Shown: in pieces, positions 14,093 through 30,900 of the stretch
How positions within the stretch are numbered: the stretch's first letter is position 1
How the letters are laid out: the number at the start of each line of letters is the position of its first letter
Assembly (NCBI GenBank): GCA_041661385.1
Contig: JBAZUP010000001.1
Coordinates: 354,560 to 418,559 of the forward strand
Direction: 5' to 3'
Source of the DNA: Patescibacteria group bacterium
GTDB taxonomy: Bacteria; Patescibacteriota; Patescibacteriia; Magasanikbacterales; GWA2-37-8
Length of the DNA: 64,000 bases
Made by a program: the position numbers and the translations under genes
Notes under the pieces: model-generated
What the model saw: only the letters and a program-made list of their open reading frames with translations
Databases searched by the model: none
Told to the model about the DNA's origin: nothing

Positions 14093-15130
14093 TCAAGTTT
14101 TTCCGTTTTTATTGTTACTCGACATCACATTATTGTCCTGGCTGATGCCTAAATCAGAACTTGAATTAAACTCGTTCAAAACATCATTAATATCAACAAA
14201 TTGTTTAATTTCCGATTCGCCGCTTTCTAAATCTATGACAATGTGCCCCAAGGATGTTTTTACGGCATTTTGCTTTAGCGAATTTTCTCCCGACGAGTAA
14301 TTAGAATCATAATATCGTTTATCAACATCGGTTCTATTTTCATCTGAGTCTTCCTCTCTCCGTTTTTCGGAAATAATATTCAGCCTTGTTTTATTTCCCT
14401 TAATCTCTTGAAATAATCGCTCAGAAAAAGATGTTACCAGCCCGTGGTGTGGAGTAATTAAAAAATCAATTCCAATTTCATTCAGCTGGTTTTTGAATTC
14501 AGTATTGTTTTCAATCAAGTACTCCATACCTTCTTTTAGAATATCTCCAGGCATTAAAACGCTCTTAGCTTCTAATTGAATAAACAGAAGAAGGCTTATA
14601 TTATTTGCGTATCCGGGTTTTAAAATTTCAGAATTTCCACACTCATTTGGTTTAATATAGAACAATTTTACCACCTCTGGAATGGTTGAAACCAAGGGGT
14701 TGGACGGAGACATTCCGAAAGGGTTGCCAGGAACATTTGCAGTCCTTTTTTTCATATCAGAAAGTACCAACTTCCTAATTTCATTTTCTCCAGTAATAAA
14801 ATTAATAATTATTTTAAAAATACTATCTTGGGTTTCGTTGTCGTTCGGACAAGTCATGTAATTTGGATGAAATCTTTCCCTAAATATTTCATAATCAGAT
14901 ATGTGGTCATTATCCAAATGACTAAGAAACAACTGGTCTATGTAGAACTTGTCAGGACTACCAAAAGTATCCGCTTTTCTAAAGGATCGGCTGTGTGCCA
15001 AAGGAATCAAAAAATTTTCTACCGGAGAAAATTCGGAACTCTTTCCGAGATCAATTACCAATTTTTTATCATCAATTTCAGCATAGGATGACAATGCCCC
15101 GCCTACATTAAAAATTGCAATCTTTTTCAT
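14093..15130 (-). CDS. Degenerate MBL-fold (metallo-beta-lactamase-like) hydrolase
   Basis: 345 aa. N-terminal IAIFNVGGALSSYAEIDDKKLVIDLG. Motif SHLDNDH (H-x-D-x-D-H in place of HxHxDH). Late ITPHHG motif typical of ComEC/MBL hydrolases. Confidence 0.4.
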   Translation of the reverse strand: MKKIAIFNVGGALSSYAEIDDKKLVIDLGKSSEFSPVENFLIPLAHSRSFRKADTFGSPDKFYIDQLFLSHLDNDHISDYEIFRERFHPNYMTCPNDNETQDSIFKIIINFITGENEIRKLVLSDMKKRTANVPGNPFGMSPSNPLVSTIPEVVKLFYIKPNECGNSEILKPGYANNISLLLFIQLEAKSVLMPGDILKEGMEYLIENNTEFKNQLNEIGIDFLITPHHGLVTSFSERLFQEIKGNKTRLNIISEKRREEDSDENRTDVDKRYYDSNYSSGENSLKQNAVKTSLGHIVIDLESGESEIKQFVDINDVLNEFNSSSDLGISQDNNVMSSNNKNGKT

Positions 15131-15798
15131 ATTTTCTTTAAACTCAACAATACGGTTTTAAAAACTAATCCTCGAGCCAAGCCTCTGCCTCTCCATAAAA
15201 AAATAACAAACAATAATGAACTTAAAATACTATAATAAAAGTATTTATTAACTAATAAAATAACGGCTATAATAAAAAATTCCAAAGAAATCACTCGCAC
15301 AAACAAATAATTTCTGTTTGCCGTTTTTATTTCATCAGTTTCACTTACATGAGAGTAAAGTTTCCAAAAAATACTCTGAGACATATCATCATTATTTTTA
15401 TCCTTTTTCCACCACCAAAAAGACAAATCAGAATATTTCTGGTTAAAAGGGCGTAACACCGCTTCTTCTAATTTAATATCTTTTACCAATTCATTTCTTT
15501 TATTCTCATTCTTTATTACTGGATTACAACTGTATAAAAAGACTTCTGACGGTCTTCGTAATTTAAAAAAGATATCTATGACCCACTCTATCTCGTGAGC
15601 AATGGTTTGCAGCACCTCCCCAGCAATGAACGCGGAACAAAAAAACAAAAATGTGTAAAGAAAATCCAAATTTTCGTTAAAGCCAAAATTAATTTTATCT
15701 ACAAATATAAAAAATAGGATTAACAATAAAAATCCGCCAGGCATTACCTTAATGACCAAGTCTTCTAATGAGAATTTTTCTACCATAATATTAAACAA
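15127..15798 (-). CDS. Hypothetical membrane protein
   Basis: 223 aa with N- and C-terminal TM helices. Overlaps the downstream gene by 4 nt (operonic). Confidence 0.35.
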   Translation of the reverse strand: MFNIMVEKFSLEDLVIKVMPGGFLLLILFFIFVDKINFGFNENLDFLYTFLFFCSAFIAGEVLQTIAHEIEWVIDIFFKLRRPSEVFLYSCNPVIKNENKRNELVKDIKLEEAVLRPFNQKYSDLSFWWWKKDKNNDDMSQSIFWKLYSHVSETDEIKTANRNYLFVRVISLEFFIIAVILLVNKYFYYSILSSLLFVIFLWRGRGLARGLVFKTVLLSLKKI

Positions 15799-15825
15799 TA
15801 ATGATTTGTAGAATCTACAAACTCA

Positions 15826-16491
15826 CTACAAACCTAAGGCGGTTAGCTTTTGATCAATATAGTCGGAGCCTTGTGTTTCTCGCGGAAACGATCCGTCGGC
15901 ATTAAAGAATGTAATCTCTTTTTCAGGGTGGGTGGCCTTCTTTGGAAAGAAAGATGTAATTTTTTCAATATCAGTAAATGGCGCTTTTTCTATTTCTTCT
16001 CCTTCGATTTCTGCAGTATGAGCTCCCGAAGACAATGATTTGGTATTTGGTCTCTCCTTTATAAGCTCGCCCATTCTCGTAGCTGCTAACTGCCAATAAG
16101 TCGCGAGAGCTATTTCATGTTCAACGATAGATCCTTCATGGAATTTTTCAAGGTGTTCCAATAACTCTTTTGTGACATCCCAAAGAGAATCATATTTCAT
16201 TGAACCCTCGGAGTAATCAATTTTAGTTGACTCTCCGATCATAAGTAAAAACATTGATTTAAGTAAATAGTCTTTTCCGTCTATATTACTTTGTCGAGAA
16301 AATACCTCAATCCAACTGTCATCAATTTTTTCAAATAAATGAGGGTAATCTTTAAATCTTTCTTTCCTTTTTAGCTCGTATTCAGCATTAGATTTCTCGC
16401 TTGCAATCGCTTCTTTCTCGTCTTCTTTCTGGCGATAAATCCGCCAGAGTATATAGGCTATTATTGCCAACAAAATATAAACTAAAGTCAT
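15826..16491 (-). CDS. Hypothetical protein with N-terminal TM anchor
   Basis: 221 aa. TM helix LVYILLAIIAYILWRI followed by a charged soluble domain. Confidence 0.35.
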   Translation of the reverse strand: MTLVYILLAIIAYILWRIYRQKEDEKEAIASEKSNAEYELKRKERFKDYPHLFEKIDDSWIEVFSRQSNIDGKDYLLKSMFLLMIGESTKIDYSEGSMKYDSLWDVTKELLEHLEKFHEGSIVEHEIALATYWQLAATRMGELIKERPNTKSLSSGAHTAEIEGEEIEKAPFTDIEKITSFFPKKATHPEKEITFFNADGSFPRETQGSDYIDQKLTALGL

Positions 16492-16499
16492 AAATTTAT

Positions 16500-17105
16500 C
16501 TAAAAAATAAGTGATAGATAATTTCGGAATTTAATTATAACCCCAATAATTAGAAAGATGGTAGCTACTACAACAAATTGATTTTTAGACAAACTAGAAA
16601 TTGGAATCTTTTTCCCGTCATTTAAGATTTTAACCAATTTGTTTCTTTCTAAGCATGCGGGGCAAATATACGGATTTGTTGATACAAAAAATATTAATAG
16701 CCCAAATATATTCAGTATGGTAAATAAAAATGCAATTCCAAAGATCCAGCGCGCTTCCCATTTGTATGGTTTTTTAACCTGACCACAACGTTTGCACTCT
16801 ACAAAAATTATATAAGATTTGCTTTTTTCAGGAATAATTAACTTGTTTAAAGAAAGCGCGGATGCAACAGCATTTTTGTTTTGAATTGTTTCTTCGTTTT
16901 GATTAGCAAAATATTCAGCATCAGAGGCAGCTTTAATCTGCTCATCTTTTTTCTGTAAATCTTCAGTTGTTTTTAGATCAGTAAATAATTTTGTCTTTTC
17001 CTCCTCCAAATACTTGTAATATTTTTGCCATTCCACTTCTGGGTCCAAGCCCTCATCCTTCATCCGTTTGACCGCCCTTTGCTCAAAAATTTTTTCGTCC
17101 GTCAT
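16500..17105 (-). CDS. Hypothetical protein with zinc-ribbon-like CxxC...CxxC pair and a TM segment
   Basis: 201 aa. CKRCGQ...ICPACLERN flanking a hydrophobic helix. Confidence 0.35.
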   Translation of the reverse strand: MTDEKIFEQRAVKRMKDEGLDPEVEWQKYYKYLEEEKTKLFTDLKTTEDLQKKDEQIKAASDAEYFANQNEETIQNKNAVASALSLNKLIIPEKSKSYIIFVECKRCGQVKKPYKWEARWIFGIAFLFTILNIFGLLIFFVSTNPYICPACLERNKLVKILNDGKKIPISSLSKNQFVVVATIFLIIGVIIKFRNYLSLIF

Positions 17106-17122
17106 AAATTTTTATTAGTTTT

Positions 17123-17575
17123 TCAATTAAAAAATTTATCAATAGCCGATAATGTACTGAATAAATTTAGTCCCGGCAGAAGTTTATCAGTAAACGCAAA
17201 AATAAGCACAAGTGTAAACATAAAAAGAATTAAGCCGGCGACAGGAATTAAAGACAGCAATTTTTTAATGCCCTTTTGTTGATTTAGTAATTTAATAAAA
17301 TAATAAAATAGCGTACCGACGACAACGAGATCAATGGCATACAGCCACCATATGAAAACTAACGAAAAAGTTGATACTCCTTCAGATGCCGCCGAGTGAA
17401 AAAAAGAGGATGCCAATAAAAATATTGTGGTTTTTAGAAAAGTCCAACCGACAGGAGCAAAAAAACTATAGATTACATAAACAAGCAAAAGAAGTCGCAA
17501 TGGCAAAAGAAAATCCCTTTTTAAAACATCATGCAAGAAAAATGATTTGACCTGGTCATATTGAGAGTTCTTCAT
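17123..17575 (-). CDS. Hypothetical polytopic membrane protein
   Basis: 150 aa with 4 predicted TM helices. Confidence 0.35.
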   Translation of the reverse strand: MKNSQYDQVKSFFLHDVLKRDFLLPLRLLLLVYVIYSFFAPVGWTFLKTTIFLLASSFFHSAASEGVSTFSLVFIWWLYAIDLVVVGTLFYYFIKLLNQQKGIKKLLSLIPVAGLILFMFTLVLIFAFTDKLLPGLNLFSTLSAIDKFFN

Positions 17576-17583
17576 ATGTAAAA

Positions 17584-17781
17584 CTACATAATTAAATCAT
17601 CAATACTTATCTCAAGTGCTTTTGCAATTTTCTTGAGAGTATCTAGAGTAGGATTTTGGTTTTTTCCTGACTCAATTTTAATAATCGTGTTATTTGCCAC
17701 ATCGGCTAATCTGGCCAATTTTTCTTGTGATAATTTTTTGTCTTCTCTAAGTTTTCGTAAATTTGTGTTAATGTTTGACAT
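17584..17781 (-). CDS. XRE-family (Cro/cI-type) helix-turn-helix transcriptional regulator
   Basis: 65 aa. LSQEKLARLADVANNTIIKIESGKNQNPTLDTLKKIAKALEISIDDL is a canonical HTH_3 signature. First gene of a tightly packed minus-strand operon running 17781 to 14093. Confidence 0.7.
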   Translation of the reverse strand: MSNINTNLRKLREDKKLSQEKLARLADVANNTIIKIESGKNQNPTLDTLKKIAKALEISIDDLIM

Positions 17782-18099: not shown

Positions 18100-18852
18100 T
18101 TATTTTTTTATTGTATTTTCAGCCAAAATGGTTCTTCTTTTAAATTCTTTTAGAATATCATTTGAGTCAATTGATTTTCTAAAATGAAAACAACTCGCTT
18201 GATTTTTCTCCGGAACAACATAATCAATCAAACTCTTCCCGTCTGGATCCCCACAGTGAACTTGATGGACAAATTGCTTACTATATTTTTCTCTATCATT
18301 ATAGTCACAATAATAAATGATCTTGTCGGTACTTAGCTGGAATACATGGGAATCCCCGTGGCCAAAAAAATATACTTCTTTTATACTTTTATCACTCATT
18401 ATTTTCTCAATATCTTTAACATTTGCCATAGTATAAAATGAAAACCTCTTACCTTCTATTTTTAACAATTCAACTAACGCAACAATTTCGCTTTTTAAAT
18501 AATTATGTTTAATCCAAGCTTCCAACTTAAACCAGTCTGATTGCCCTAAAACAATGACGGTTTCCGCAGGAATGTTTTGTTCAAAAGTATTAATATACTT
18601 GTGTATTAAATGGTCCTGGATTGGAATTATAATTGCAAATATTGGTGAGAGAAAAAACCTCAAAAAATCATCCCAGAAAATCAAGGTTCCATAAACCATT
18701 ACAAAAAATACATGTACATAAACAACAGAAAGAAAACCATACCCCTTAATTACCAAAACACCCAAACAAAAAATATAAACAAAAAATTGAATCAACCCCA
18801 CATCGGTTCTTCTCAAAATTTTTTCTACTTTTTTCATAAAAATTTCAACCAA
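18100..18852 (-). CDS. Membrane protein with two N-terminal TM helices and a C-terminal soluble domain containing GHGDSH and downstream Cys motifs; candidate effector/accessory of the adjacent CBASS-like operon
   Basis: 250 aa. TM helices FFVYIFCLGVLVIKGYGFLSVVYV and VFFVMVYGTLIFW. C-terminal VYFFGHGDSHVFQLS…IIYYCDY…VHCGDPDG. Start codon 6 nt after the stop of the upstream gene. Confidence 0.45.
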   Translation of the reverse strand: MVEIFMKKVEKILRRTDVGLIQFFVYIFCLGVLVIKGYGFLSVVYVHVFFVMVYGTLIFWDDFLRFFLSPIFAIIIPIQDHLIHKYINTFEQNIPAETVIVLGQSDWFKLEAWIKHNYLKSEIVALVELLKIEGKRFSFYTMANVKDIEKIMSDKSIKEVYFFGHGDSHVFQLSTDKIIYYCDYNDREKYSKQFVHQVHCGDPDGKSLIDYVVPEKNQASCFHFRKSIDSNDILKEFKRRTILAENTIKK

Positions 18853-18858
18853 TAATAG

Positions 18859-19449
18859 CTAGAATGCCCCAATAAATTTAAGCTTCCATCTATCAGTATA
18901 TTTTAGTTCAATTTTTTTATATCTAAATTTATATTTTATAAGACTAAAATTGTCAAAAAGTTGACCCGCATCATCTAAAACACTACTTAGCCCATCTTCC
19001 GTCAAATCATTTGGAATTAATATTCTTAATGACGGTTCAAACGGGCCAGAAATTGTATTTGCCAAGACAATAAATTCACGGTTTTTGCTTTGCAAATACT
19101 TATACGATTTAACGACAACCAATTTTGTAATCTCCCACCCGATGTTGGGCAAAACAAATACCGTAAAAAAATATATACCTGGACCAATCCATGATTCAAT
19201 ACTAAAATAACCGCCGCCGCCCAACATCGGCTCATTTCTTCCTCTAATCAAATCGTTTAATCTAAACTTAAAAAAATGCTTAATCCCAAACCACTTATAA
19301 TTAAAATACCCTTTAATTATATCGATATAATATAATCTACTTTTAAAGTAGATCTTCACCTCGCCATTACCTGCAATCGTTCCCTCTAAATCTTTTAGAA
19401 TTTTATTATTAAGCGATTCATCTGTTACAAATATGGTAGTTTTATCCAT
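18859..19449 (-). CDS. Hypothetical protein in the CBASS-like operon (one central hydrophobic segment)
   Basis: 196 aa, no recognisable motif. Gly-rich loop MLGGGGYF. Hydrophobic stretch IGPGIYFFTVFVLPNIGW. Only a 6-nt gap to the NTase gene stop. Confidence 0.4.
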   Translation of the reverse strand: MDKTTIFVTDESLNNKILKDLEGTIAGNGEVKIYFKSRLYYIDIIKGYFNYKWFGIKHFFKFRLNDLIRGRNEPMLGGGGYFSIESWIGPGIYFFTVFVLPNIGWEITKLVVVKSYKYLQSKNREFIVLANTISGPFEPSLRILIPNDLTEDGLSSVLDDAGQLFDNFSLIKYKFRYKKIELKYTDRWKLKFIGAF

Positions 19450-19455
19450 AATAAT

Positions 19456-20832
19456 TTATCTCTTTTTAATAAATCTAAAGCGCCGTCTGTTTATGATATT
19501 TACATGAAAAGGACCACTGCGTGCTACCATTCGGCCTCGGTTTACAACGAAGCATTCAATCCAATGTTTCCCCGAATATGAAGCTTTTTCGTGATTTATT
19601 TTTTGATTCGAAGTCAACTTATTATAGAGATCTTTACCCTTAAAAAATCCACCTCTCAACCCATTATCTTGTTTTGCTTCTATCCCCGTGTTCACGACCT
19701 GCCAAAATATTTCAGAACCTGCCGGCTCATTTAAAGTGATGGCTTCATATTTAAAAGTATTTCCGTCAAATTGAACCGGTCCGTTTGAAGGAATTTCCAT
19801 TAATTTATATCCACTCGAAGTACATTTAATTTTTACTGAACAACCTACATTTGTGATTGGCCATTCTGGCACTTTAAGGTGTTGATAATCTCCAAGCGGA
19901 AACACTGTTTCAGATAGTTGCTTTTCCGCGTCCTTTACAGCAATCAAAAAATCATCGCCAAAAATTTCAGTCCATTTCTTAACTGAACTTTCAAAGTCCG
20001 GATCATCATATGCGTCACTGATCTTTTCGGTATATAATTTAAATTTATCTCTAAAATTTTCATACTTTTCTTGATCCCAATGCCTATTAAAATCTTCACT
20101 CGGGAGGCTTGGATTAACAATTGTAGGCATTACTGGATTTCGCTGTAAATAGTCATTAACACGGTTACAAATATTTTTTAACGTCGTTGGTACATCTGAA
20201 AATATAATAACTGGATCGCTAACATAAACATTTTGACCAAGAAGAGTAGTGAGCAAAATTGATTTTACATTCATTAATTTTGTATCACGAAGATACTTAA
20301 CAAGTCTAACAACTTTAACCAAATTATTTTGTGCAGCAGAATTCTTTGCTGAAAACCATTCCGCGTATCCATCAGCGTCAGTTATTTCGTATTGATTGGT
20401 ATTTTTATTCATGATCTTTTGATTGCCGGCATCATCAACACATGGGATAATATCCATATGAAAATCGGATTCATAATCCAAGGTCACGCAACGAGTTTTT
20501 CCCCGTTTATCAACAATATCTTTATATCTATCAGTTTTGAAAAACTCATCATGAAGAATTGCTAAATAGTCCTTCGGTTCCCATCCATTAACTTTTTTTA
20601 GCTGAAAAAGTAAATCAACATCAAAATCTTTATTATCCATGCATGGCTTTATGATCGTTCCCTGACGATATGACCCTTGAGGTTTTACTGAAATAAAATA
20701 TTTTTTAAAAATGTCATTATTTTTTAGAAATTTTTCTACTGTTTCTATCCCCGTTTTTGCAACATCAATCCTATTTTGATTAAGATTAACTGTATTCTGT
20801 AAAAATATTGAAAACTCGTTAACTAGATTCAT
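19456..20832 (-). CDS. cGAS/DncV-like (SMODS-type) nucleotidyltransferase with an extra C-terminal ~150-aa domain (AGS-C-like sensor domain)
   Basis: 458 aa. Minimal NTase signature GSYRQGTIIKPCMDNKDFDVDLLF (GS…[DE]h[DE]h) plus a third acidic residue in FHMDIIPCV. The C-terminal segment VPEWPITNVGCSVKIKC…HWIECFVVNRGRMVARSG lies beyond the NTase core. Confidence 0.7.
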   Translation of the reverse strand: MNLVNEFSIFLQNTVNLNQNRIDVAKTGIETVEKFLKNNDIFKKYFISVKPQGSYRQGTIIKPCMDNKDFDVDLLFQLKKVNGWEPKDYLAILHDEFFKTDRYKDIVDKRGKTRCVTLDYESDFHMDIIPCVDDAGNQKIMNKNTNQYEITDADGYAEWFSAKNSAAQNNLVKVVRLVKYLRDTKLMNVKSILLTTLLGQNVYVSDPVIIFSDVPTTLKNICNRVNDYLQRNPVMPTIVNPSLPSEDFNRHWDQEKYENFRDKFKLYTEKISDAYDDPDFESSVKKWTEIFGDDFLIAVKDAEKQLSETVFPLGDYQHLKVPEWPITNVGCSVKIKCTSSGYKLMEIPSNGPVQFDGNTFKYEAITLNEPAGSEIFWQVVNTGIEAKQDNGLRGGFFKGKDLYNKLTSNQKINHEKASYSGKHWIECFVVNRGRMVARSGPFHVNIINRRRFRFIKKR

Positions 20833-20833
20833 A

Positions 20834-22012
20834 TCATGAAGGATTAACTATAATGGTTTCTTCGTAATTTCCTTTATCATTCCTGTCGTAAATAATTAAG
20901 GAAGGCGTAACACCCTTTAGCAACTCCCTACCTATGTGAAAAGCTAAAGAAACCGGAACTGCTGCAAAGACATGCAGTTCTTTTGTACTAGGGTGGAGTT
21001 TCTCAATTTCTCTCAATAGCTGTGCGTATCGTACACGAAAAATTTCGGCAGATTTATTTGATCCAATTATACTCCTAGAACTATCTTCCCCAATGGGATT
21101 AAGCCTATAAATGGTAAAAGATTTACCGATGTTGGCTGGGAGAGCGTTTCGCGCTATTACGCCGCTCGCAGAAATGCAAAGTGCGATTTTATCCTTAGCA
21201 CCGATCTGCTCCACGGTGGATTTAAAATCTATGGAACCTTTTATGGATGGCCATTTCCAACTCTCAGACGAATCCCTGTGCTTTTGATATATATCAATTT
21301 TAATTTTATCGCCAATTTTATTGCCGAAATAAGCTATTAACGGAATCCTGGCGAGCGCAAAAACGGAGATATGCTTGACCGACCCATCTTCAATCGATGG
21401 AAAAATTTTGAGATCGACAACCTTATCAATAATTTTTTTTCCTTCATCCCAGTAATAAGAATCCTTTCCAGCAATTTTAGACAAGTCAATTTCTATACCG
21501 TTTTGTTTCCCAGCCATAAGGTACCGGGGATAACGATTACAAGCTAAAACCGCTTCTCGTATTTCACCATCTGAGACAGAAACTGTACCTCCTCTAATAT
21601 TACCAATTAATCGAATGACTGCTGTTTCCGATTCTGGTCCGAGCGAGGTTTGGTACAAAATCCTATCTTCATGAACTTTTTTATATTCCAAAAGGAGTTC
21701 AACCGGAAAATCTTTCGGAGATTTATCTATAATTTTATTATGATGTTCTGAACAGAGAAGCATCAAATTGCCTACTTTGTTTCTATCCGTGACAGGAAGA
21801 GAACAACTCCCTCGAGGCCCCTTCCGTGACCGTCCAACAACGTGCGCAACATCCCCCAAAAAAAGTTCATTTAATCCTGTAAACTCATCATCCAATAGGT
21901 ACTTATTGCACCCTAAAAATTCACATCTGCCACCCGCTCTAACCCACAGAGCTATTCTCACTGGATTGGATTGTGTTATTGAAGATGCTTTTTCTTCAGT
22001 AGTCTTCGGCAT
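20834..22012 (-). CDS. cap5: Cap5-type effector: HNH endonuclease fused to a SAVED cyclic-oligonucleotide sensor domain
   Basis: 392 aa. N-terminal HNH (GGRCEFLGCNKYL…HVVGRSRKGP…NLMLLCSEHHNKIID). C-terminal SAVED hallmark HVFAAVPVSLAFHIGRELL…IIYD. Confidence 0.75.
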   Translation of the reverse strand: MPKTTEEKASSITQSNPVRIALWVRAGGRCEFLGCNKYLLDDEFTGLNELFLGDVAHVVGRSRKGPRGSCSLPVTDRNKVGNLMLLCSEHHNKIIDKSPKDFPVELLLEYKKVHEDRILYQTSLGPESETAVIRLIGNIRGGTVSVSDGEIREAVLACNRYPRYLMAGKQNGIEIDLSKIAGKDSYYWDEGKKIIDKVVDLKIFPSIEDGSVKHISVFALARIPLIAYFGNKIGDKIKIDIYQKHRDSSESWKWPSIKGSIDFKSTVEQIGAKDKIALCISASGVIARNALPANIGKSFTIYRLNPIGEDSSRSIIGSNKSAEIFRVRYAQLLREIEKLHPSTKELHVFAAVPVSLAFHIGRELLKGVTPSLIIYDRNDKGNYEETIIVNPS

Positions 22013-22014
22013 AT

Positions 22015-22245
22015 TTAATGAACTTTATCCTTTGGCGGACAACTATCGTTGCCGAAACTGTCCTTATCTTTAATTAGACCATGTCGATTGTGATAAACGG
22101 CCTCAACCTCAGCTCTTTTTGCGAGAGTGTGAGTTTTGTCTTCAGCGGCCTCTTGAGTGCGATGAACCGAAACCGGCTTACTTACCCCTTCTTTTTTTAC
22201 AGCCCAGTCACCATCCCAGGGCACACTATGATAATTTTTTGCCAT
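22015..22245 (-). CDS. DUF2188-family small protein
   Basis: 76 aa. MAKNYHSVPWDGDWAVKKEGVSKP…HTLAKRAEVEAVYHNRHGLIKDKDSFGNDSCPPKDKVH matches the conserved DUF2188 pattern (W.VK.EG…H.TQ.EA…G.I.DKDSYGNDP.PP.D). Its stop abuts the cap5 start. Confidence 0.6.
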   Translation of the reverse strand: MAKNYHSVPWDGDWAVKKEGVSKPVSVHRTQEAAEDKTHTLAKRAEVEAVYHNRHGLIKDKDSFGNDSCPPKDKVH

Positions 22246-22259
22246 AAATAAATAATAAA

Positions 22260-22895
22260 TTATTTTTTAACAACTCTAACCACAACGCCATTAACAAAAT
22301 ATTTGCCATCCTCTACATCCTCTTCGTGGATCGTTATTGGCGGTGCGTCGTTATCCGTCTCAGAAATAAGTCTGATTTCATGCTTTGTATTGTCCTTAAA
22401 AAATTTCTTAATATTCGCGGCACCGTCAATTACCGACAAAACATAATTCCCGTTGCTGGGTTTTTGCTTGCATTCAACAACTACATAATCACCGGTTTCG
22501 ATTCCTTCTCCCTTAATGTTAGCGCCAGTCATAGAATCACCCACCGCTCTAACCGCAATGAGTCCGTCCGGCCGATATTGCCCAATTGATTTTTTAGAAA
22601 TTTTTAAATAGCCCTCAATATGAGTTTCGGCTAATTCTGTGGCTGGACCACAACTCGCTGATCCGACAATGGGAATATTAAAAAAGTTATCCACAGTATA
22701 CCCCTGGGGCTTTGCCACCCGCTGACGCTTATTGGAATCAAAATACAACAACCCCTTCTTCTTTAGCTGCTCTAGATTATATATGACGGACTGAGGATGT
22801 TTAACCCCGATTTCACGCATTATTTCCCTGAATTTCATATCAGAAATATCCTTTTTTTTGGCTAATTTTAGTAATTTTTCTTGTGTTTCGTTCAT
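22260..22895 (-). CDS. LexA-like repressor (winged-HTH + S24 autopeptidase domain)
   Basis: 211 aa. N-terminal wHTH (IMREIGVKHPQSVIYNLEQLKKKGLL). S24 catalytic Ser in AVGDSMTGANI and Lys in AANIKKF. First gene of the operon. Confidence 0.7.
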   Translation of the reverse strand: MNETQEKLLKLAKKKDISDMKFREIMREIGVKHPQSVIYNLEQLKKKGLLYFDSNKRQRVAKPQGYTVDNFFNIPIVGSASCGPATELAETHIEGYLKISKKSIGQYRPDGLIAVRAVGDSMTGANIKGEGIETGDYVVVECKQKPSNGNYVLSVIDGAANIKKFFKDNTKHEIRLISETDNDAPPITIHEEDVEDGKYFVNGVVVRVVKK

Positions 22896-22970
22896 AAACC
22901 TATATTTTATCGGTTTTTTAAATATAATGCCTGCTATAAATTCAGCGGGGCTGATACCCCATCGGTTATA

Positions 22971-22999
22971 GTATATTATAAATGATTTATAATGTCAAG
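22971..22999 (-). promoter_or_regulatory. Sigma70-like promoter for the lexA-like operon with a 17-bp palindromic operator in the spacer
   Basis: In minus orientation: TTGACA – ttataaatcatttataa (17 nt) – TATACT. The spacer is a perfect inverted repeat TTATAAAT c ATTTATAA (22977..22993). Confidence 0.45.
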
Positions 23000-23015: not shown

Positions 23016-23044
23016 TTGACACCAATCAAAACCGAGCGTACAAT
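23016..23044 (+). promoter_or_regulatory. Divergent sigma70-like promoter for 23077..23553 (TTGACA-17-TACAAT)
   Basis: cTTGACAccaatcaaaaccgagcgTACAATc, about 30 nt upstream of the ATG at 23077. Confidence 0.45.
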
Positions 23045-23755: not shown

Positions 23756-25084
23756 ATGATTAATACAAAACTTAACATCGTGGAAGTTCCGGTCAACGAA
23801 CTTCGAGCGTCGGAATACAATCCACGCAAACATTCTAAAGAACAATCCGACCAGCTTAAGAAATCAATTGAGCGCTTCGGCCTCGTGGACCCAATCATTT
23901 GTAATAACGCACCGGAGCGAAAAAATATCATCGTTGGCGGCCACTTTAGAGCCGAAGTAGCCAAAGAGTTAGGCCTGACCACGGTACCTGTAGTGTATGT
24001 CTGTATTACAGAGATACAAAAGGAACAGGAGCTTTCAGTCCGTCTTAACAAAAATACCGGGGAGTTTGACCTTGATCTCCTAGCAGAATTTGACGAAGCC
24101 TTCCTAGCCGATGTCGGTTTTGATAGCGAAGAGATAGATGACATCTTTCCTACTGAGGTAAATACCGAGATGTTTGACTTGAAAAAGGAACTAGAAAAAT
24201 TAAATATCCAAGAAATTACCGTACAGAAAGGAGACACTTACGAATTGAACGGCTCTCGCCTCCGGTGTGGCGATTCAACAATTGAGGCGGATGTTATTAA
24301 ACTTATGAATGGCGAAAAGGCCGACATGTGCTTTACCGATCCACCATATATCCTTGATTACCTCAAAGGTAAAACAAAAAATAAGGATGGAGTGACCGTT
24401 GGCTTTGGCGCTAAAAAGAATCGTCGCTACCTTGAAACCGACGAACTGCCACCAGATTTTACGGAAAAATGGATAGCTAATATTAACAAGGTTGCCAAAG
24501 AGAGCTTTGCCATCATTGTTTATGAGAACTGGAAGAACCTTCGGATTATTTGGGGCGAGCTTGAGAAATATTGGAAAGTAAAAAATATGATTGTTTGGCA
24601 CGTCCCTAATCGGATGCAAGGATTTTCAGCTAAAAATAAATTCTTTAATAAACACGATATTGCCATGGTCGGGGCGTCGGAAGACAAAGCGCTTGAAGCA
24701 GAAGATGAAGGCGAACTGCTTGAAAATGAATATGAGACGGCGCTCTACGCCATTGCTGGCAAGCCACATTGGGAATCCTACGAAACCGGCAAAAAAATCT
24801 GCCCGACCGATTTTATAGATTATAAGGCGGCTGACGAAAAATCATCAGGACAAGGTGTAATCTTTGGAACCAAACCAACCGAAATCCTTATCCCCTACAT
24901 TAAAGTCCTTACCAAGCGAAACGATCTGATCGTTGAACCTTTCGGTGGTAGTGGTTCAACCCTAATTTCAGCGATTAAGATGAATCGCCGCTGTTATATC
25001 ATGGAAAAATCACCAGTTTACACCGAAGTCATTTTGAAACGCTGGGAAAAAGAAACTGGAGAAAGACCAAAGAAAATCAACTAA
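23756..25084 (+). CDS. ParB-like nuclease N-terminal domain fused to an N6-adenine/N4-cytosine DNA methyltransferase
   Basis: 442 aa. ParB/Srx motif (VNELRASEYNPRKH, IIVGGHFR). MTase motif IV TDPPY and motif I EPFGGSGST. Confidence 0.75.
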   Translation: MINTKLNIVEVPVNELRASEYNPRKHSKEQSDQLKKSIERFGLVDPIICNNAPERKNIIVGGHFRAEVAKELGLTTVPVVYVCITEIQKEQELSVRLNKNTGEFDLDLLAEFDEAFLADVGFDSEEIDDIFPTEVNTEMFDLKKELEKLNIQEITVQKGDTYELNGSRLRCGDSTIEADVIKLMNGEKADMCFTDPPYILDYLKGKTKNKDGVTVGFGAKKNRRYLETDELPPDFTEKWIANINKVAKESFAIIVYENWKNLRIIWGELEKYWKVKNMIVWHVPNRMQGFSAKNKFFNKHDIAMVGASEDKALEAEDEGELLENEYETALYAIAGKPHWESYETGKKICPTDFIDYKAADEKSSGQGVIFGTKPTEILIPYIKVLTKRNDLIVEPFGGSGSTLISAIKMNRRCYIMEKSPVYTEVILKRWEKETGERPKKIN

Positions 25085-25085
25085 T

Positions 25086-25670
25086 ATGATCGACGACAAG
25101 ACAAAACTAAACCTTCTAAAAGAAATCCAAAAAAACGGTAACGTTAGTTTGTCTTGCATTAGAATTAATATTGATCACGCAACCTATTATCGCTGGAAAA
25201 AAGAAGATAAAGAATTTCGTAAAAAAGCCAACGAGGCTGAAACTATCGGAAGAAAAAATAATTGTGACCTGGCGGAGCACGCTTTAATACTTCTGGTAAA
25301 GGAAAAAAAGATAGAAGCTGTCAAATATTTACTAAGCCACAATTCACCCAGGTACAAACCAAAAACAACGAACGCTGTAATACTACATAAATCTTTACCA
25401 AAATTAGAACCAGTACCGACAAGAACCCTGGAGGATCTGCTGGTCGAGGATGGTGAACAGCGCAGAGAAAGATGCGTTAGTATCCAGAATAAATTTCTCG
25501 CCTTAGGCGGTGTTCCACCTAAGGCTGATGGATCGCCAATTGAATTTCACGAACTAATTGATTATGAGATATATATTGAGGAGTGGTATAAGAAGAAAGA
25601 TATTGATGACGAAAAGAAAAATATACCGACTACTGAGTATCAAAAAATTTCACCATTAACAAACGGCTGA
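25086..25670 (+). CDS. Phage terminase small-subunit-like HTH protein
   Basis: 194 aa. N-terminal LKEIQKNGNVSLSCIRINIDHATYYRWKKEDKEFRKKANEA resembles the TerS/homeodomain-like HTH. Confidence 0.4.
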   Translation: MIDDKTKLNLLKEIQKNGNVSLSCIRINIDHATYYRWKKEDKEFRKKANEAETIGRKNNCDLAEHALILLVKEKKIEAVKYLLSHNSPRYKPKTTNAVILHKSLPKLEPVPTRTLEDLLVEDGEQRRERCVSIQNKFLALGGVPPKADGSPIEFHELIDYEIYIEEWYKKKDIDDEKKNIPTTEYQKISPLTNG

Positions 25671-25673
25671 AAT

Positions 25674-26381
25674 TTATTTATATACTTCAAGTGACCCACC
25701 AAAAGCCGTGACCTCAGCCACCTTTTCATTAGATTGTACATCGCGAATTTCAAGGTGTTTAAAACCAGTTATCTCCTCCTTCAGCATTGCTAGCTTTGCA
25801 AGAATATCTTTTTTGAAAGTAACTTTTTGGGAATACCAAGCAGGACCGACGTAAACGACGCTTGCTGTTTTGGAAAACTCATATGAATCAAAAAGGCCAG
25901 CTTGTTTACCTAGATTAATTAGTTCATCCAGCTCCTTCTGTGCCTCTTCCTTTGGACGGGCTGTCTGCACTGTTGTAACTGCTTCAGTTTTAACTTGACT
26001 ATCCTTATTAACTTGCTCAGGGGTTGTACTCACAACAATTTGTTTATCCTGAATTTTAACTAAGGATTCCGGTTCTTTTTTTACTTCAGGAGCAGCGACA
26101 CCAATCATAATCAGAGAAACAAAACCCAACAAGCCAAATATTAAGGTTAATTTTTTTCTATTTGGCTGTGATTTAAAAAATCTTGTAAACAAAGACGGCT
26201 TGGCAAGACCAATAAACCAAGCAATTATTGATCCAAAAAATATAAAACCAAATAACGTTTGCATACTTATTTTAATAATTAAATAAATAAAGCCGACCTT
26301 TAGATAAGCCGGCATGAAACACAAAACCCCACGCCAGCTGGGCTTTTTACGGCCCCATACACCTTTCGATGTATGACTCAA
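25674..26381 (-). CDS. Hypothetical membrane protein (true start possibly at 26264, Met40 MQTLFGF…)
   Basis: TM helices followed by a Thr/Lys-rich linker and a C-terminal soluble domain. The first ~39 codons overlap a terminator-like palindrome and are probably not coding. Confidence 0.4.
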   Translation of the reverse strand: MSHTSKGVWGRKKPSWRGVLCFMPAYLKVGFIYLIIKISMQTLFGFIFFGSIIAWFIGLAKPSLFTRFFKSQPNRKKLTLIFGLLGFVSLIMIGVAAPEVKKEPESLVKIQDKQIVVSTTPEQVNKDSQVKTEAVTTVQTARPKEEAQKELDELINLGKQAGLFDSYEFSKTASVVYVGPAWYSQKVTFKKDILAKLAMLKEEITGFKHLEIRDVQSNEKVAEVTAFGGSLEVYK

Positions 26382-26385
26382 CTAA

Positions 26386-26428
26386 GAATAGCTGAACGTG
26401 GAGTTCAGTGTCTTAGTTGAGTTTCGAA
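26386..26428. repeat. Long imperfect inverted repeat (actcaactaaga…tcttagttgagt) in the intergenic region 5' of the serine recombinase
   Basis: 12-bp arms plus 5-bp inner arms (ctgaac/gttcag). Candidate recombinase att core, operator or part of a structured RNA. Confidence 0.35.
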
Positions 26429-26639
26429 GCACCATGCCTAGAGGTTATCTGGGTTTAGGTACTTGGCCTTCCAGCCTGAATTGTCAATGACATTTTAGCT
26501 AAATTATAGCCAAATGTCCAGCACATAATAGCTTAGAATAGGTGCTTTGCGAAGCTTAGTTATCTACAGTTTGTCTACTAGGGGCTCTGGACTAACTAGC
26601 GGGGTCTGCGTCATTAATGTCTATGAGATAATATAATCT

Positions 26640-27932
26640 ATGGACCAAATCACAGCCCCTCCTACCCAATATTGCCTATACGCCCGTAAGTCGTCCGAAT
26701 CAGACGAAAAGCAGGCCCTTTCAATAGATTCCCAGATCAAAGAGATGACCAAACTAGCCGAACGGGATGGACTCTATATAAAGGAGATTAGGCGAGAAAG
26801 TCATTCGGCCAAGGCTTCGGGGCAAAGGCCGGTATATAACGAGTTGATTGAGGATATTAGGAAAGGGTTATTTACCGGTATTTTAACTTGGGCACCGGAT
26901 CGGCTGAGCAGAAACGCCGGCGATCTGGGGTCGTTAGTTGATCTAATCGACCAAAAACTACTTCACGAAATACGAACCTATGGTCAAAAATTTACCAATT
27001 CCCCTAACGAGAAATTTCTATTAATGATTCTGGGAAGTCAGGCAAAACTTGAAAATGATAACCGAGGCTTAAACGTAAAACGAGGTCTGAGAGCAAAAGT
27101 GGAGATGGGTCTGTGGCCTGGAGTGGCGCCAATCGGGTATTTGAATGAAAAACGAACGGATCGAAAATGCCACATTGTCATAGACCCTTTAAGAGCACCG
27201 ATTGTAAAAAAGATTTTTGAGAAAGCGGCAAATGATGGCTGGAGCGGTCGACAAATTCATGCTTGGTTAAAAAATGATTTAAACTTTAGATCAAAAAACA
27301 ATAAATATTTTGCCTTAAGCAATTTATACTTAATGCTTAGGAACACTTTTTACTACGGGTCACACGAATACCCAAAAGGGAGTGGCAATTGGTATACTGG
27401 GAATCACCAGCCTATTATTTCGAAAGAGCTTTTTGAGAAGGTTCAGGAAAGAATGTTGGATTATCAAGTCGGAAAAAGTAAAAGTAAAGAATTTGCCTTT
27501 ACCAAACTAATCACATGCGGACTATGTGGATCGGGTATTACCGCTGATGAAAAATTTAAAAAACAAAAAAATGGCACCATCCATCGCTACGTATATTATG
27601 GTTGTACAAAATACAAAGACTTAAATTGCAAATTAGGCTATATGAGAGAAGAAGATTTACTAAACCAAATACTTGAACTGATTGACAAAATTTCTCTGGA
27701 GGAGCTCGGGATGAAAGAAAAAATTGTAAAAGAAGTTGAACGGTATCATAAATTTCAATCGGGAGTTATGGGAATCAATCCTGAACAAAAAGAAAAACAA
27801 AAAAGGATTGATATTAAAAATTATGCCAAGTTTATTTTAAAAGAAGGGCAGGTGTTCGAAAAAAGAGATTTGTTGTCAAATTTAAAAAGCCATCTCACCC
27901 TTGAGAATAAATTATTAAACTTAAAAAATTAA
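26640..27932 (+). CDS. Large serine recombinase (integrase)
   Basis: 430 aa. Resolvase-type N-terminus with catalytic Ser (CLYARKSSESDEKQALSIDSQ). Recombinase domain and C-terminal zinc-ribbon/coiled-coil (CGLCGSGITADEK…YYGCTKY). Confidence 0.85.
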   Translation: MDQITAPPTQYCLYARKSSESDEKQALSIDSQIKEMTKLAERDGLYIKEIRRESHSAKASGQRPVYNELIEDIRKGLFTGILTWAPDRLSRNAGDLGSLVDLIDQKLLHEIRTYGQKFTNSPNEKFLLMILGSQAKLENDNRGLNVKRGLRAKVEMGLWPGVAPIGYLNEKRTDRKCHIVIDPLRAPIVKKIFEKAANDGWSGRQIHAWLKNDLNFRSKNNKYFALSNLYLMLRNTFYYGSHEYPKGSGNWYTGNHQPIISKELFEKVQERMLDYQVGKSKSKEFAFTKLITCGLCGSGITADEKFKKQKNGTIHRYVYYGCTKYKDLNCKLGYMREEDLLNQILELIDKISLEELGMKEKIVKEVERYHKFQSGVMGINPEQKEKQKRIDIKNYAKFILKEGQVFEKRDLLSNLKSHLTLENKLLNLKN

Positions 27933-27938
27933 TTTACT

Positions 27939-30900
27939 TTATTGAGATTTAAATGTCGCTATTATGGCAGCCCACGCATTGCTGGCAGATGTTGTGAATT
28001 TTGCAGCGGTTGTGGTAGCTATTGCTATGACTCTGTCTTCCGAGGCTAAACGTTGGTATGTACTAACTCCATTCACCAATTCTGTTTGACGAATTGTATA
28101 ACCTGAACCCGCCGTCCAGGAATTATTATTCCCAGCGCTCCATGCAAGCCCAAAATATAATTCATTTGTTGAAGTGGTTGTAATGTTGCCCGAACTAGGC
28201 GTAACTGAAGACCCTGTACCAGACATTGTCTTGTCTAACGGATTCGTTGTGTTTATTCCGGCATACTCATGAACCGCTAGCGTACCTGTGACGGTTGACG
28301 AAACAGTAAAACCTGATCCACCAATAACATTTTTCGCATAAAATATTGCAGCTCGATACGAATTTTTTACTGCCTCAGCGGCTTTATAATAAGTATTACC
28401 CTTATTGTCTGTAATTGTGCTGGTTGGAAAAGTGACATTATAGGCTGTAATTCCAACTACCACCAAATTACTTCCGACGACGGAGCCGGAAAAAGCAACT
28501 GATTTAGAACCGTGTGCTTTTTGACTTTGAATATAAGATGGTGACCCAGCAAGCGAAAAAGTTGACGTTGTTGTGCTCCACCCACCAGCCAACCCACCAA
28601 CGTCTTCAAAAGCAATACGCCAATAATAAATAGTACTTGAGACAAGTGCTGACCCCGCATAAGTAATTTCTGGACTTCGGCTGTTCTCGGTTGTCGTCGC
28701 CATCGTTGTAGTGCCAGAATCCCATTTTATAACCGTAAACGAACTAGAAGTTGAAACCTGGATACGATATTTGTTGGCCTGATCACCGGAATTAAGATCC
28801 GTATAAATTGCCGAGAATTTTGGCGTGCTTGTTAAGTTTGATGGATTAACAAGACCTTGAGTCAATGTGCTGGTTGGAACGGTTGGTGCGGTGTTCAATG
28901 AAAATGTTGAAGTGGCTGTGCTCCAGGCACCTACCAAGCCGCCCACATCAACAAACTCAACACGCCAATAATAAATAATGTTCGTCGCTAGAGCCGAACC
29001 TGTATAGAGTATGTCCGGACTCCTGTTTCCCTCTGTAGTTGTTACCATCGTTGTAGTGCCAGAATCCCATTTTATACTGGCAAAAACGCTCGAGGTTGAA
29101 ACTTGCAGACGATGCCTATTTGCTTGGTCTCCGGCATCTGGATCGTTATATATTGCTGAAAACCTTGGTGTAGTCGTTGCAATATTTGTTGGGTTAGTTT
29201 GACCTTCGACAAGCATGTCTGTTGGTGCGGCAGGTGCACTATTTAAGGAAAAAGTAGAAGTTTCCGCGCTCCAAGCACCGGGCAGACCCCCAACATCAAC
29301 GAGGGAAATTCGCCAATAATACACGATACTTGATGCAAGGGTTGAACCGCCATATGTAATGTCCGGAACTCTAGTTCCCGATGTCGTTGTCGCCATTGTC
29401 GTCGTGCCAGAGTCCCATTTAATATTTGAAAAAATACTTGAAGTTGAAACTTGAACGCGATACTTGTTAGCGGTATCACTCAAATCTAGATCGTTATAGA
29501 TCGCGGAGAATTTCGGCAAACTAACCATGAGGTTGGCTGGGTTAGTTTGATTTTCAGTCCAAAGTGCGGTGGGAGCAACCGGGGCTCTATTTGGGGGAAT
29601 GGTTTCAAAATAATCTTTTCCATTAGTCCATTGACCTTCATTGTCATCATTGTCCCATAGCTTAATCCGCCAATAATATTTAGTCCCATTCTGTAAACCC
29701 GACCCACCATAAACAATGTTAGGGATTCGACTGCCCGCGGGAGTATTTTCCGAAAATGTCTGTCTCCCGGAATCCCAAAACGGCGAAGTAAAGCTACCAC
29801 CACTTTGAATTAATTGAATCTGATAGCTATTCGCAGTTGAGCTTGCATCGAGTGATTCGTAGATTGCACTAAACTCTGGCGTTGAAGTTATTGTAATGAT
29901 TTGTTTTGGCACTAGACTAACGTTATCTACTTGGAAAGTATGGGCAATTCTACCCAGATAGAAAGTTACACGAGCATTCGAATCTCCCTGAGACGGGTTT
30001 ACTTCAAAGGAATATGATTGCCACGAAGGATTTACGGAAAAATCAGACCATGTTAAATCAGCATACGGATCGTGGTTTTGTGTCAAAACAACTGTCTCAG
30101 TTGTTGAAACGCTCGATTTGGCATCAAACTTAAGTAGGTAGGTAGTTGAAGTGTTAGCAATTAGATTCTGGCTTAATTGAACTTGATAGTGTTGTCCACT
30201 GTAATTCACAATAGTTTTGTTTGAACAATTTCCATCACTACCCTCCGAACAATCGACTGAATTGGTCGCTTGTGGGTCACCATTTTGTGACCAGAAATAC
30301 CAATTATTCATGCTCGTTTCAAAACTTGGATTCTTAATTAGGCTTAAATTATCTGGTGTAACTTCTACGTCTTCCAGCCAATAACTATTTATGTTGGTAC
30401 CAACATAATAGAAAACTCTAGCCAACTCATCGGTTCCATTGCTGGTAAAAGTAAACGCATACTGTTTCCAGTCTGGAGTAATTGAAACACCGGCGGCAAG
30501 GCCAAAATCTGACCAAGGACTATGGTCTTGATTAACACCAAAAGTAATTGTTGAGGTGGTGGTCGCCTTAGCTCTGAATTTAACTGTATAATTAATCCCA
30601 GTATCTACTCTTAAATCTTGCCAGAACTGGGAATCCCATACATTACCGGCACTTGAAACAATAATTTTCTGAGAACAGTTGCCAGTAAATGATACTGTGC
30701 AATCAACCGTATTTGTTCCACCATTACCAGACCAAAATTTCCAGTAATTTGTGGACCCATCTTCAAAACTATTATCATAAATTACATTATCACTTCTCAT
30801 GAGTCCTAAAGTTTGCAGATTTCTTGATTCCGATGGATTAATCATCAAAGACAAAACAAATGTTGAGGTATTAGCACTCCAGACTCCTTCATTATTAACT

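Follow-up and report, generated by a model that had tools for sequence, protein, structure and literature searches.

T250 is the label used here for a gene at positions 18100 to 18852 (minus strand) of a 64,000-nucleotide stretch of DNA from a Patescibacteria group bacterium (GenBank assembly GCA_041661385.1, contig JBAZUP010000001.1, positions 354,560 to 418,559), and the whole of this stretch is referred to as the window. For this window, T250 founds a family of small, membrane-tethered proteins that has no annotation. The fold predicted for it and the genes that accompany it tip the balance, by a small measure, toward a caspase-like cysteine peptidase that acts autonomously, is tethered to the membrane, probably faces the cytoplasm and belongs to a mobile defense island, rather than a component of the cyclic-oligonucleotide-based antiphage signaling system (CBASS) encoded beside it, as an earlier note on this DNA had proposed.

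The T250 gene, its family and its membrane module

The gene is described below; residue numbers are counted throughout from the TTG start, which gives a protein of 250 amino acids (aa).

18100..18852, minus strand: T250, 250 aa from the TTG at 18852; likely true start at the ATG at 18837 (245 aa); stop codon at 18100-18102

The listing of open reading frames (ORFs) in the window holds a single ORF over this interval. The NCBI and JGI annotations both begin T250 five codons after the TTG, at the ATG at 18837, to give 245 aa, and the methionine encoded there is the start in most homologues in the alignment. Judged from these sequences, the ATG is the likely true start. The ORF itself is, on the strength of sequence comparison, a real gene, far beyond chance, because its homologues form 109 clusters at 39-67% identity to T250 (clustering at 90% identity) and a profile search of 1.84 billion proteins gave 246 representatives (50% identity) at E ≤ 1e-3. 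Nearly all members have 190-290 aa and the same layout, and a Pfam domain is present in none of them.

No match to T250 was found in Pfam, NCBIfam or PADLOC (E ≤ 1) or in PHROGs. Ten more members of the family, including several distant ones, had no Pfam match at E ≤ 0.1, barring a chance-level VIT1 match (E 0.027) in member P0256, and a homologue search with a broad alignment returned the same unannotated set among the matches listed. The named sources are Patescibacteria of the candidate phyla radiation (CPR; Saccharibacteria, Doudnabacteria, Uhrbacteria, Falkowbacteria and Colwellbacteria), Pacearchaeota, Elusimicrobia, Caldisericia and metagenome-assembled genomes of Gastranaerophilales. 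This spread of members across phyla points to horizontal transfer of the family.

Conservation narrows with distance. Close relatives share many invariant residues, and four histidines and three cysteines are kept (H165, H169, H196, H199, C182, C200 and C221). The broad alignment of 87 sequences, which reaches down to 16% identity, has H165, G166 and C200 as its only invariant columns, with G164, Y181, K192, H199 and G205 nearly invariant; C182, H169, H196 and C221 are not among its conserved columns.

A few members are longer than the rest. No extra domain was found in scans of P0100, which has a C-terminal extension, or of P0136 and P0208, which have N-terminal ones. P0098 and P0100 (426-427 aa; locus L108, 2523-3806) share a C-terminal extension of about 180 aa, without a Pfam or PDB sequence match, that carries RNNLEH, a possible RNase motif of the HEPN type (Rx4H). 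The P0100 gene adjoins a C5 DNA methylase gene.

The N-terminal part of T250 forms a membrane module in which the transmembrane (TM) helices were assigned from hydropathy and the AlphaFold2 model, and the topology from the positive-inside rule; counts of lysine plus arginine (K+R) are family means.

18745..18801, minus strand: TM helix 1 (aa 18-36), preceded by a K/R-rich tail (mean 3.7) predicted to be cytoplasmic
18676..18735, minus strand: TM helix 2 (aa 40-59), with a nearly invariant His47 inside; TM1 and TM2 are joined by a 3-aa loop with almost no K or R (mean 0.3)
18619..18663, minus strand: short third hydrophobic helix (aa 64-78, with a conserved Pro70), followed by a strongly basic linker (mean 4.2)

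The N-terminal pair of TM helices described in the earlier note is thus confirmed by hydropathy and by the model, and it is joined by a third, short hydrophobic helix that the note did not mention. Because the tail and the linker are basic, the positive-inside rule predicts that both ends of the module, and with them the C-terminal domain, are cytoplasmic. Helix 3 may be re-entrant or interfacial, which would leave the caspase-like domain at the inner face of the membrane. Some distant members carry an added C-terminal TM helix.

Predicted fold and candidate catalytic residues

The AlphaFold2 model of full-length T250, built with the family alignment as input, had a mean predicted local distance difference test score (pLDDT) of 95.7 and a predicted template modeling score (pTM) of 0.90; the soluble domain modeled alone had a pLDDT of 93.8. 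The model shows five N-terminal helices (aa 2-87) and then an α/β domain with strands at aa 98-102, 137-140, 159-163 and 194-198, the last two separated by a hairpin (170-172 and 178-180), and with a long helix at its C terminus. Three features of this predicted domain are used in what follows.

18103..18570, minus strand: minimal caspase-like α/β domain (aa 95-250), with four parallel strands, a β-hairpin after the His, a long C-terminal helix and no p10-like half
18355..18363, minus strand: G164-H165-G166, directly after strand 3 (EVYFF), with the candidate catalytic His; H165 and G166 invariant
18250..18258, minus strand: H199-C200-G201, directly after strand 4 (FVHQV), with the candidate catalytic Cys; C200 invariant

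Most of the best Foldseek matches of the model in the PDB belong to peptidase clan CD, namely, caspase-3, -7, -8 and -11, legumain/butelase, the SAVED-CHAT filament (8tl0) and gingipain, with probabilities mostly of 0.9-0.99 and E-values of about 3e-3 to 5e-2. The domain-only model gave the same picture, with TM-scores of 0.40-0.49, and a search of the BFVD structures returned weak caspase and metacaspase matches.

The hallmark of clan CD is a His that closes strand 3 and a Cys that closes strand 4, and in caspase-3 the elements follow one another as β3-SHG, hairpin, helix and β4-QACRG. The T250 model runs through strand 3, GHG, hairpin, short helices, strand 4 and HCG. From the fold matches and this agreement in the order of elements, we read the domain as a clan-CD-like fold in minimal form, with His165 and Cys200 as its dyad. 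The sequence has the corresponding arrangement, with His-Gly after one hydrophobic strand (EVYFF) and Cys after a second (FVHQV). T250 is probably a membrane-tethered clan-CD-like cysteine peptidase or transpeptidase that uses H165 and C200, the candidate dyad being placed by the order of strands in the model.

The earlier note had quoted three motifs, all of which are found in the translation (VYFFGHGDSH at aa 160-169, IIYYCDY at 178-184 and VHCGDPDG at 198-205), and had compared their His-Gly and strand-Cys pattern to caspase-like folds. The caspase-dominated fold matches and the invariant H165-G166 and C200 support that guess, but they point to a Cys other than the one that it stressed: the candidate catalytic residue is C200 (VHCG) and not C182 (IIYYC), a residue lacking in several distant members of the family. 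Conserved His and Cys residues do exist near those proposed for mutation, but the numbers given (H166, H171 and C186) were slightly off and should read H165, H169 and C182, to which the more important C200 is to be added.

A degenerate metallophosphoesterase with a GHxH motif, the other possibility raised for this region, was rejected. There is no match to a Metallophos Pfam family at E ≤ 1 and no phosphoesterase among the top 50 fold matches. From the motif set of those enzymes (DxH, GDxxDR, GNH[DE], H and GHxH), T250 has only the GHGDSH string, in which H169 is not broadly conserved.

Genomic setting

The neighborhoods of T250 homologues were compared across 102 loci, 24 from species-representative genomes and 78 from metagenomes, of which 95 have distinct proteins; 35 are well flanked, with at least 4 kb on both sides. 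Recurrent neighbors are a ParB-methylase, a TerS-like protein, the large terminase subunit TerL, a serine recombinase, type I restriction-modification (R-M) genes and assorted defense genes. Three backbone genes of the putative element lie in the window.

23756..25084, plus strand: ParB_N + N6_N4 DNA methylase, with homologues (E down to 1e-252) in 27 T250 loci
25086..25670, plus strand: 194-aa TerS-like protein (HTH_Tnp_1_2 small-terminase-like cluster), with homologues in 22 T250 loci
26640..27932, plus strand: large serine recombinase (Resolvase, Recombinase and Zn_ribbon_recom), with homologues in 15 T250 loci

Within 6 kb of T250, 23 of the 35 well-flanked loci have backbone genes and 10 have type I R-M genes. 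Half of the genes upstream of T250 (40 of 80) are co-directional with it within 30 nt, and their identities vary widely. They include HsdR with a YgjP-like peptidase, a Dsr1-like protein of 1174 aa, an LmuB/mad3-like SMC ATPase, a Schlafen-type helicase with NERD, DUF4365, a trypsin-like protease and a metallo-β-lactamase (MBL)-fold protein. Around a relative of 25% identity, the neighborhood has weak TIR, AAA_15, dnd-associated and helicase matches. T250 very likely belongs to a mobile defense island of CPR bacteria and DPANN archaea, as an autonomous gene that is either accessory or part of the backbone.

The idea of a conserved partner gene was rejected, since the most frequent immediate downstream neighbor, a protein of 375-419 aa, is present in only 12 of 95 loci. 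That protein overlaps the end of T250 (L001, 10677-11804; L003, 10611-11807; L035, 8617-9804; L045, 8611-9804), has only weak, sub-threshold zinc-ribbon-like Pfam signals and occurs mostly with the closest relatives of the T250 of the window, from which it is itself absent.

The module of ParB-N6_N4 methylase and TerS-like protein, often with TerL, recurs in the window (23756-27932, plus strand) and in loci L006, L008, L013, L048, L056, L063, L110 and L111. A serine recombinase or integrase lies nearby in several of these loci, and no recognizable capsid or tail genes were seen in the regions examined. The module may represent a family of satellite-like or degraded CPR elements with defense cargo.

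In the window, T250 is the last of six co-directional genes that run from 22895 to 18100 with gaps of 1-21 nt. The other five, and two promoter-like sites, are as follows.

23016..23044, plus strand: promoter-like site divergent from the next, which it faces; consensus match only
22970..22998, minus strand: promoter-like site TTGACA-17-TATACT (11/12), upstream of the LexA-like gene; consensus match only
22260..22895, minus strand: LexA/CI-like repressor (LexA DNA-binding helix-turn-helix [HTH] and Peptidase_S24), first gene of the run
22015..22245, minus strand: DUF2188 protein, PADLOC candidate PDC-S16
20834..22012, minus strand: CBASS effector Cap5 (HNH endonuclease and SAVED), from Pfam and PADLOC
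19456..20832, minus strand: CBASS cGAS/DncV-like nucleotidyltransferase (CD-NTase; SMODS and AGS_C), from Pfam and PADLOC
18859..19449, minus strand: 196-aa orphan between the cyclase and T250, without a family match in Pfam, NCBIfam, PADLOC or PHROGs

The stop codon of the upstream ORF occupies 18859-18861 and leaves 6 nt to the TTG of T250, the distance given in the earlier note, or 21 nt to the ATG. Co-transcription with the cyclase, also claimed there, is still likely because the six genes are co-directional and so tightly spaced, but the gene directly before T250 is the orphan, and the CD-NTase lies one gene further up.

LexA-like proteins 36-56% identical to that of the window adjoin T250 in five other loci. 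The repressor lies just downstream of T250 in L059 and precedes it in L056, L063, L071 and L011, and where it precedes T250, 0 to 4 variable genes stand between. The gap is 55 nt without cargo in L056, 1.2 kb with one 400-aa protein in L063 and L071, 2.5 kb with an MBL-fold protein and small genes in L011/L109, and 3.4 kb with DUF2188, Cap5, CD-NTase and the orphan in the window. T250 is 46-48% identical to the window copy in the five paired loci. This divergence, similar to that of the repressors, fits joint inheritance of the two with exchange of the cargo between them. The CBASS of the window is thus one of several cargoes in a repressor-headed operon closed by T250.

The LexA-like protein and DUF2188 at the head of the operon suggest that CBASS expression may be inducible by DNA damage. 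The logic is analogous to that of the CBASS regulators CapH and CapP (bioRxiv 10.1101/2022.04.27.489752), the difference being that the window has a self-cleaving S24 repressor.

These data bear on whether T250 might serve the life cycle of the element and not defense, as a backbone gene that processes membrane proteins of the element or the host during induction, lysis or transfer or acts in maintenance (addiction). Its co-occurrence with the methylase, the TerS-like protein and the recombinase in 27, 22 and 15 loci, the backbone genes in 23 of the 35 well-flanked loci and the apparent co-inheritance with the repressor speak for such a role. The remaining 12 of those 35 loci have no recognizable backbone gene within 6 kb, the immediate partners of T250 are mostly defense genes and the family is absent from the viral, phage and plasmid collections described below, so that we regard a life-cycle role as unlikely, if far from negligible.

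The remaining explanation that the operon brings to mind is the one favored by the earlier note, that T250 is a CBASS effector or accessory, perturbing the membrane in response to a cyclic nucleotide or processing the cyclase or Cap5. T250 does stand in the same co-directional run as Cap5 and CD-NTase, 6-21 nt after the preceding gene, and 2-TM effectors are known in CBASS from PADLOC models. The CBASS of the window is, however, already complete, a type I system of two genes whose effector is the HNH-SAVED protein Cap5. Searches of the 3,808 ORFs of the 102 loci, within 8-10 kb of the T250 homologue, found relatives of the CD-NTase, of Cap5/SAVED or of the 196-aa protein in none of them, even at E ≤ 10 with the HMMER filters off. 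In a Pfam scan of 138 immediate neighbors, neither SMODS nor SAVED ranked among the 25 most frequent families, and five Pfam-annotated loci contain neither.

The protein itself gives the same answer. Cap5 and CD-NTase match their PADLOC models strongly, whereas no CBASS TM-effector model matches T250. Neither a cyclic-nucleotide sensor (SAVED, STING or Cap4-like) nor an accessory domain (Cap2 E1/E2, Cap3 JAB, HORMA or TRIP13) was detected in T250 at E ≤ 1 in Pfam, NCBIfam or PADLOC, and the model holds only TM helices and the caspase-like domain. Elsewhere, the frame from the LexA-like gene to T250 holds other cargo or none. Because no CD-NTase or SAVED protein accompanies T250 in the 102 loci, it is nearly certain that T250 is not a dedicated part of CBASS, and the effector or accessory role has become extremely improbable. 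The earlier note had itself named a lack of SMODS/SAVED partners in other genomes as the finding that would overturn its proposal. The lesson for annotation is that a position beside the cyclase, seen in a single genome, was no proof of membership of CBASS.

The 196-aa orphan, which has a Gly-rich stretch and one hydrophobic segment, found only its own sequence in a word-indexed search of 5.8 billion proteins. It is inserted cargo and no partner of T250 elsewhere, and could be a lineage-specific CBASS accessory, an anti-defense gene or a decaying ORF.

Other features of the window lie outside this operon. Downstream of T250, at 14093-17781 (minus strand), an XRE-type HTH gene (17584-17781) heads a tight run with four unannotated proteins of 150, 201, 221 and 223 aa, three of them with obvious TM segments; the last gene encodes a 345-aa MBL-fold protein with weak matches to LmuA-, ComEC- and Avs1a-like MBL proteins. 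This run could be another uncharacterized system in the same island. A LOOT RNA (Rfam RF03000; 67 bits against a gathering score of 46.4; E 5e-11) lies at 26340-26461 (minus strand), just upstream of the serine recombinase and overlapping the start of a 235-aa ORF. A match to the tmRNA model inside the recombinase gene (27246-27503, plus strand) reached 20 bits against a gathering score of 47 and is almost certainly spurious. Directly beside the recombinase, 27939-36965 (minus strand) encodes a secreted or surface protein of 3008 aa with many fibronectin-like and lectin-like repeats.

Proposed function and comparison with known systems

The data establish the gene and its family, the conserved residues, a confident model with mostly caspase-type fold matches, the absence of linkage to CBASS and a neighborhood of mobile-element and defense genes. 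What we infer about T250 concerns its topology, its catalytic activity, its co-regulation by the repressor and its role in defense. In the working model, an N-in hairpin of two TM helices and the short hydrophobic helix would hold the minimal caspase-like domain at the cytoplasmic face of the membrane, where the GHG His and the HCG Cys would most likely carry out cysteine-peptidase or transpeptidase chemistry on a membrane-proximal substrate. The gene would belong to integrated elements or defense islands of CPR bacteria and DPANN archaea, with transfer to a few other phyla, and the element backbone would consist of the ParB-methylase, the TerS-like protein, sometimes TerL, and a serine recombinase. 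T250 would end an operon begun by the LexA/CI-like S24 repressor, with the CBASS pair, DUF2188 and the orphan as variable cargo between, and in the window it may be de-repressed upon self-cleavage of the repressor.

Since T250 stands repeatedly in operons with unrelated defense systems, a single-gene conflict function appears the most likely one. Through proteolysis at the membrane, T250 might exclude phages or abort infections, being co-expressed with other defense cargo. That T250 is itself a conflict gene acting by proteolysis at the inner membrane face alongside such cargo is a tentative proposal that falls somewhat short of an even chance. A stronger form of it is more doubtful, namely, that T250 on its own constitutes a novel system of immunity or exclusion in CPR bacteria and DPANN archaea, a sensor-less, membrane-tethered minimal caspase that cleaves a host or phage protein. 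It would then be activated at the inner membrane face during phage attack or induction of the element and stop the infection.

Several observations weigh against a caspase-like peptidase of a defense island. The support from fold comparison is moderate, with no Foldseek E-value below 1e-3 and TM-scores of at most 0.49, and generic flavodoxin-like domains (FprA and REC) score almost as well as caspases. After strand 4 the models have only short helices and one long C-terminal helix, and the domain is without the p10-like half (strands 5-6) and the dimerizing strand of true caspases. No sequence method ties T250 to any clan CD family: a profile search of PDB sequences with the T250 family found nothing at E ≤ 10, and the curated peptidase families (Peptidase_C14, CHAT, C13, C11, C25, C50 and C80) gave no Pfam or NCBIfam match at E ≤ 1. 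An unconstrained hhalign alignment of the family with human caspase-3, taken solely as a check of consistency and not as evidence, pairs EVYFFGHG with FVCVLLSHG and KQFVHQ with KLFIIQ, is non-significant (E 0.035-0.13) and puts C200 one residue past the position of the caspase Cys.

Other points on the same side come from the genomes. A LexA-like neighbor is present in only about 12 of 95 T250 loci, housekeeping genes occur among the neighbors (for arginine biosynthesis in L010, for an ABC transporter in L023), and the case for a defense role comes from the neighborhood only. The family is also absent from IMG/VR (2.9 million viral contigs), the GenBank phages (50,697 records) and PLSDB (72,556 plasmids). 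The labels "phage gene," "prophage gene" and "plasmid gene" were dropped for this reason, and the absence indicates a gene of chromosomal islands or integrated elements and not of known phage genomes.

The modest fold scores leave some room for a different C-terminal domain, flavodoxin-like and not a peptidase, in which the His and Cys residues would serve metal binding or redox/thiol sensing and the protein would act through its membrane helices. The four His and three Cys kept in the close family, the conserved His47 within TM2, the near-equal scores of FprA and REC and TM-scores below 0.5 are in line with this. In the broad family, however, invariance is confined to H165, G166 and C200, with H199 coming close, a pattern to be expected of a catalytic dyad more than of a metal site with four ligands. 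Clan CD proteins also dominate the best matches in two independent fold searches, and the His and Cys stand directly after strands 3 and 4, as is typical of that clan. A metal or redox domain is therefore rather unlikely, though less so than the CBASS role, and the caspase-like peptidase is retained.

A large share of microbial diversity belongs to the ultra-small CPR bacteria and DPANN archaea, which have tiny genomes, are mostly hard to culture and have a small known anti-phage repertoire. T250 is a good candidate for a new conflict function in these organisms, being widespread, highly conserved, wholly unannotated and found repeatedly in operons with CBASS, type I R-M, Dsr1-like, Lamassu-like and Schlafen-like systems.

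Among known systems, the CBASS 2-TM and 4-TM effectors resemble T250 in being small, in their N-terminal TM helices and in being encoded beside a CD-NTase. T250 differs from them in lacking a PADLOC effector match, a nucleotide-binding domain and co-occurrence with CD-NTase across the 102 loci. The likeness to lysogeny-module genes for exclusion or abortive infection, such as those of lambda cI-rexA-rexB and the lactococcal sie genes beside the repressor, is a positional analogy: in both cases a membrane protein is encoded in or beside the transcription unit of the CI/LexA-like repressor of an element. There is no sequence or fold relationship with these proteins, and T250 has an enzyme-like domain and belongs to a family absent from phage and viral collections.

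Closer parallels are found within clan CD. Legumain and butelase are among the fold matches of T250, and GPI8 (PIG-K), of the same family C13, is a membrane-anchored clan CD transamidase that acts at the membrane surface. This likeness makes transpeptidation a possible chemistry for T250. The C13 proteins are luminal or extracytoplasmic with a C-terminal anchor and share no sequence similarity with T250, which is predicted to face the cytoplasm from an N-terminal anchor. The CHAT proteases (SAVED-CHAT and TPR-CHAT/Craspase) have a caspase-like fold in phage-defense loci, and 8tl0 is among the T250 matches. T250 has neither a CHAT Pfam match nor a SAVED, TPR or other sensor domain, is much smaller and membrane anchored and is unlinked to a nucleotide-signaling system in other genomes.

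The best structural matches are the caspases, metacaspases and orthocaspases (MEROPS clan CD, family C14), with which T250, to judge from its model, shares the parallel-strand α/β sandwich, His-Gly after strand 3, Cys after strand 4 and the hairpin between. It has no detectable sequence relationship with C14, and its domain of about 155 aa has no p10-like half, dimerizing strand or prodomain, carries QVHCG instead of QACRG and is tethered by an N-terminal TM hairpin. The literature searched, with coverage that is incomplete and thus gives weak evidence of novelty, held no described membrane-anchored minimal caspase-like family in CPR defense islands. The fold class is already known, and the T250 family would be a new, minimal, membrane-anchored branch of caspase-like proteins with a possible link to immunity. 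Its predicted domain would be among the smallest caspase-like domains, here tethered to the membrane, and bears on the first immune use of caspase-type proteases. If the single-gene immune function holds true, organisms with poorly known defenses would have in T250 a pared-down prokaryotic relative of the immunity that caspases provide through cell death.

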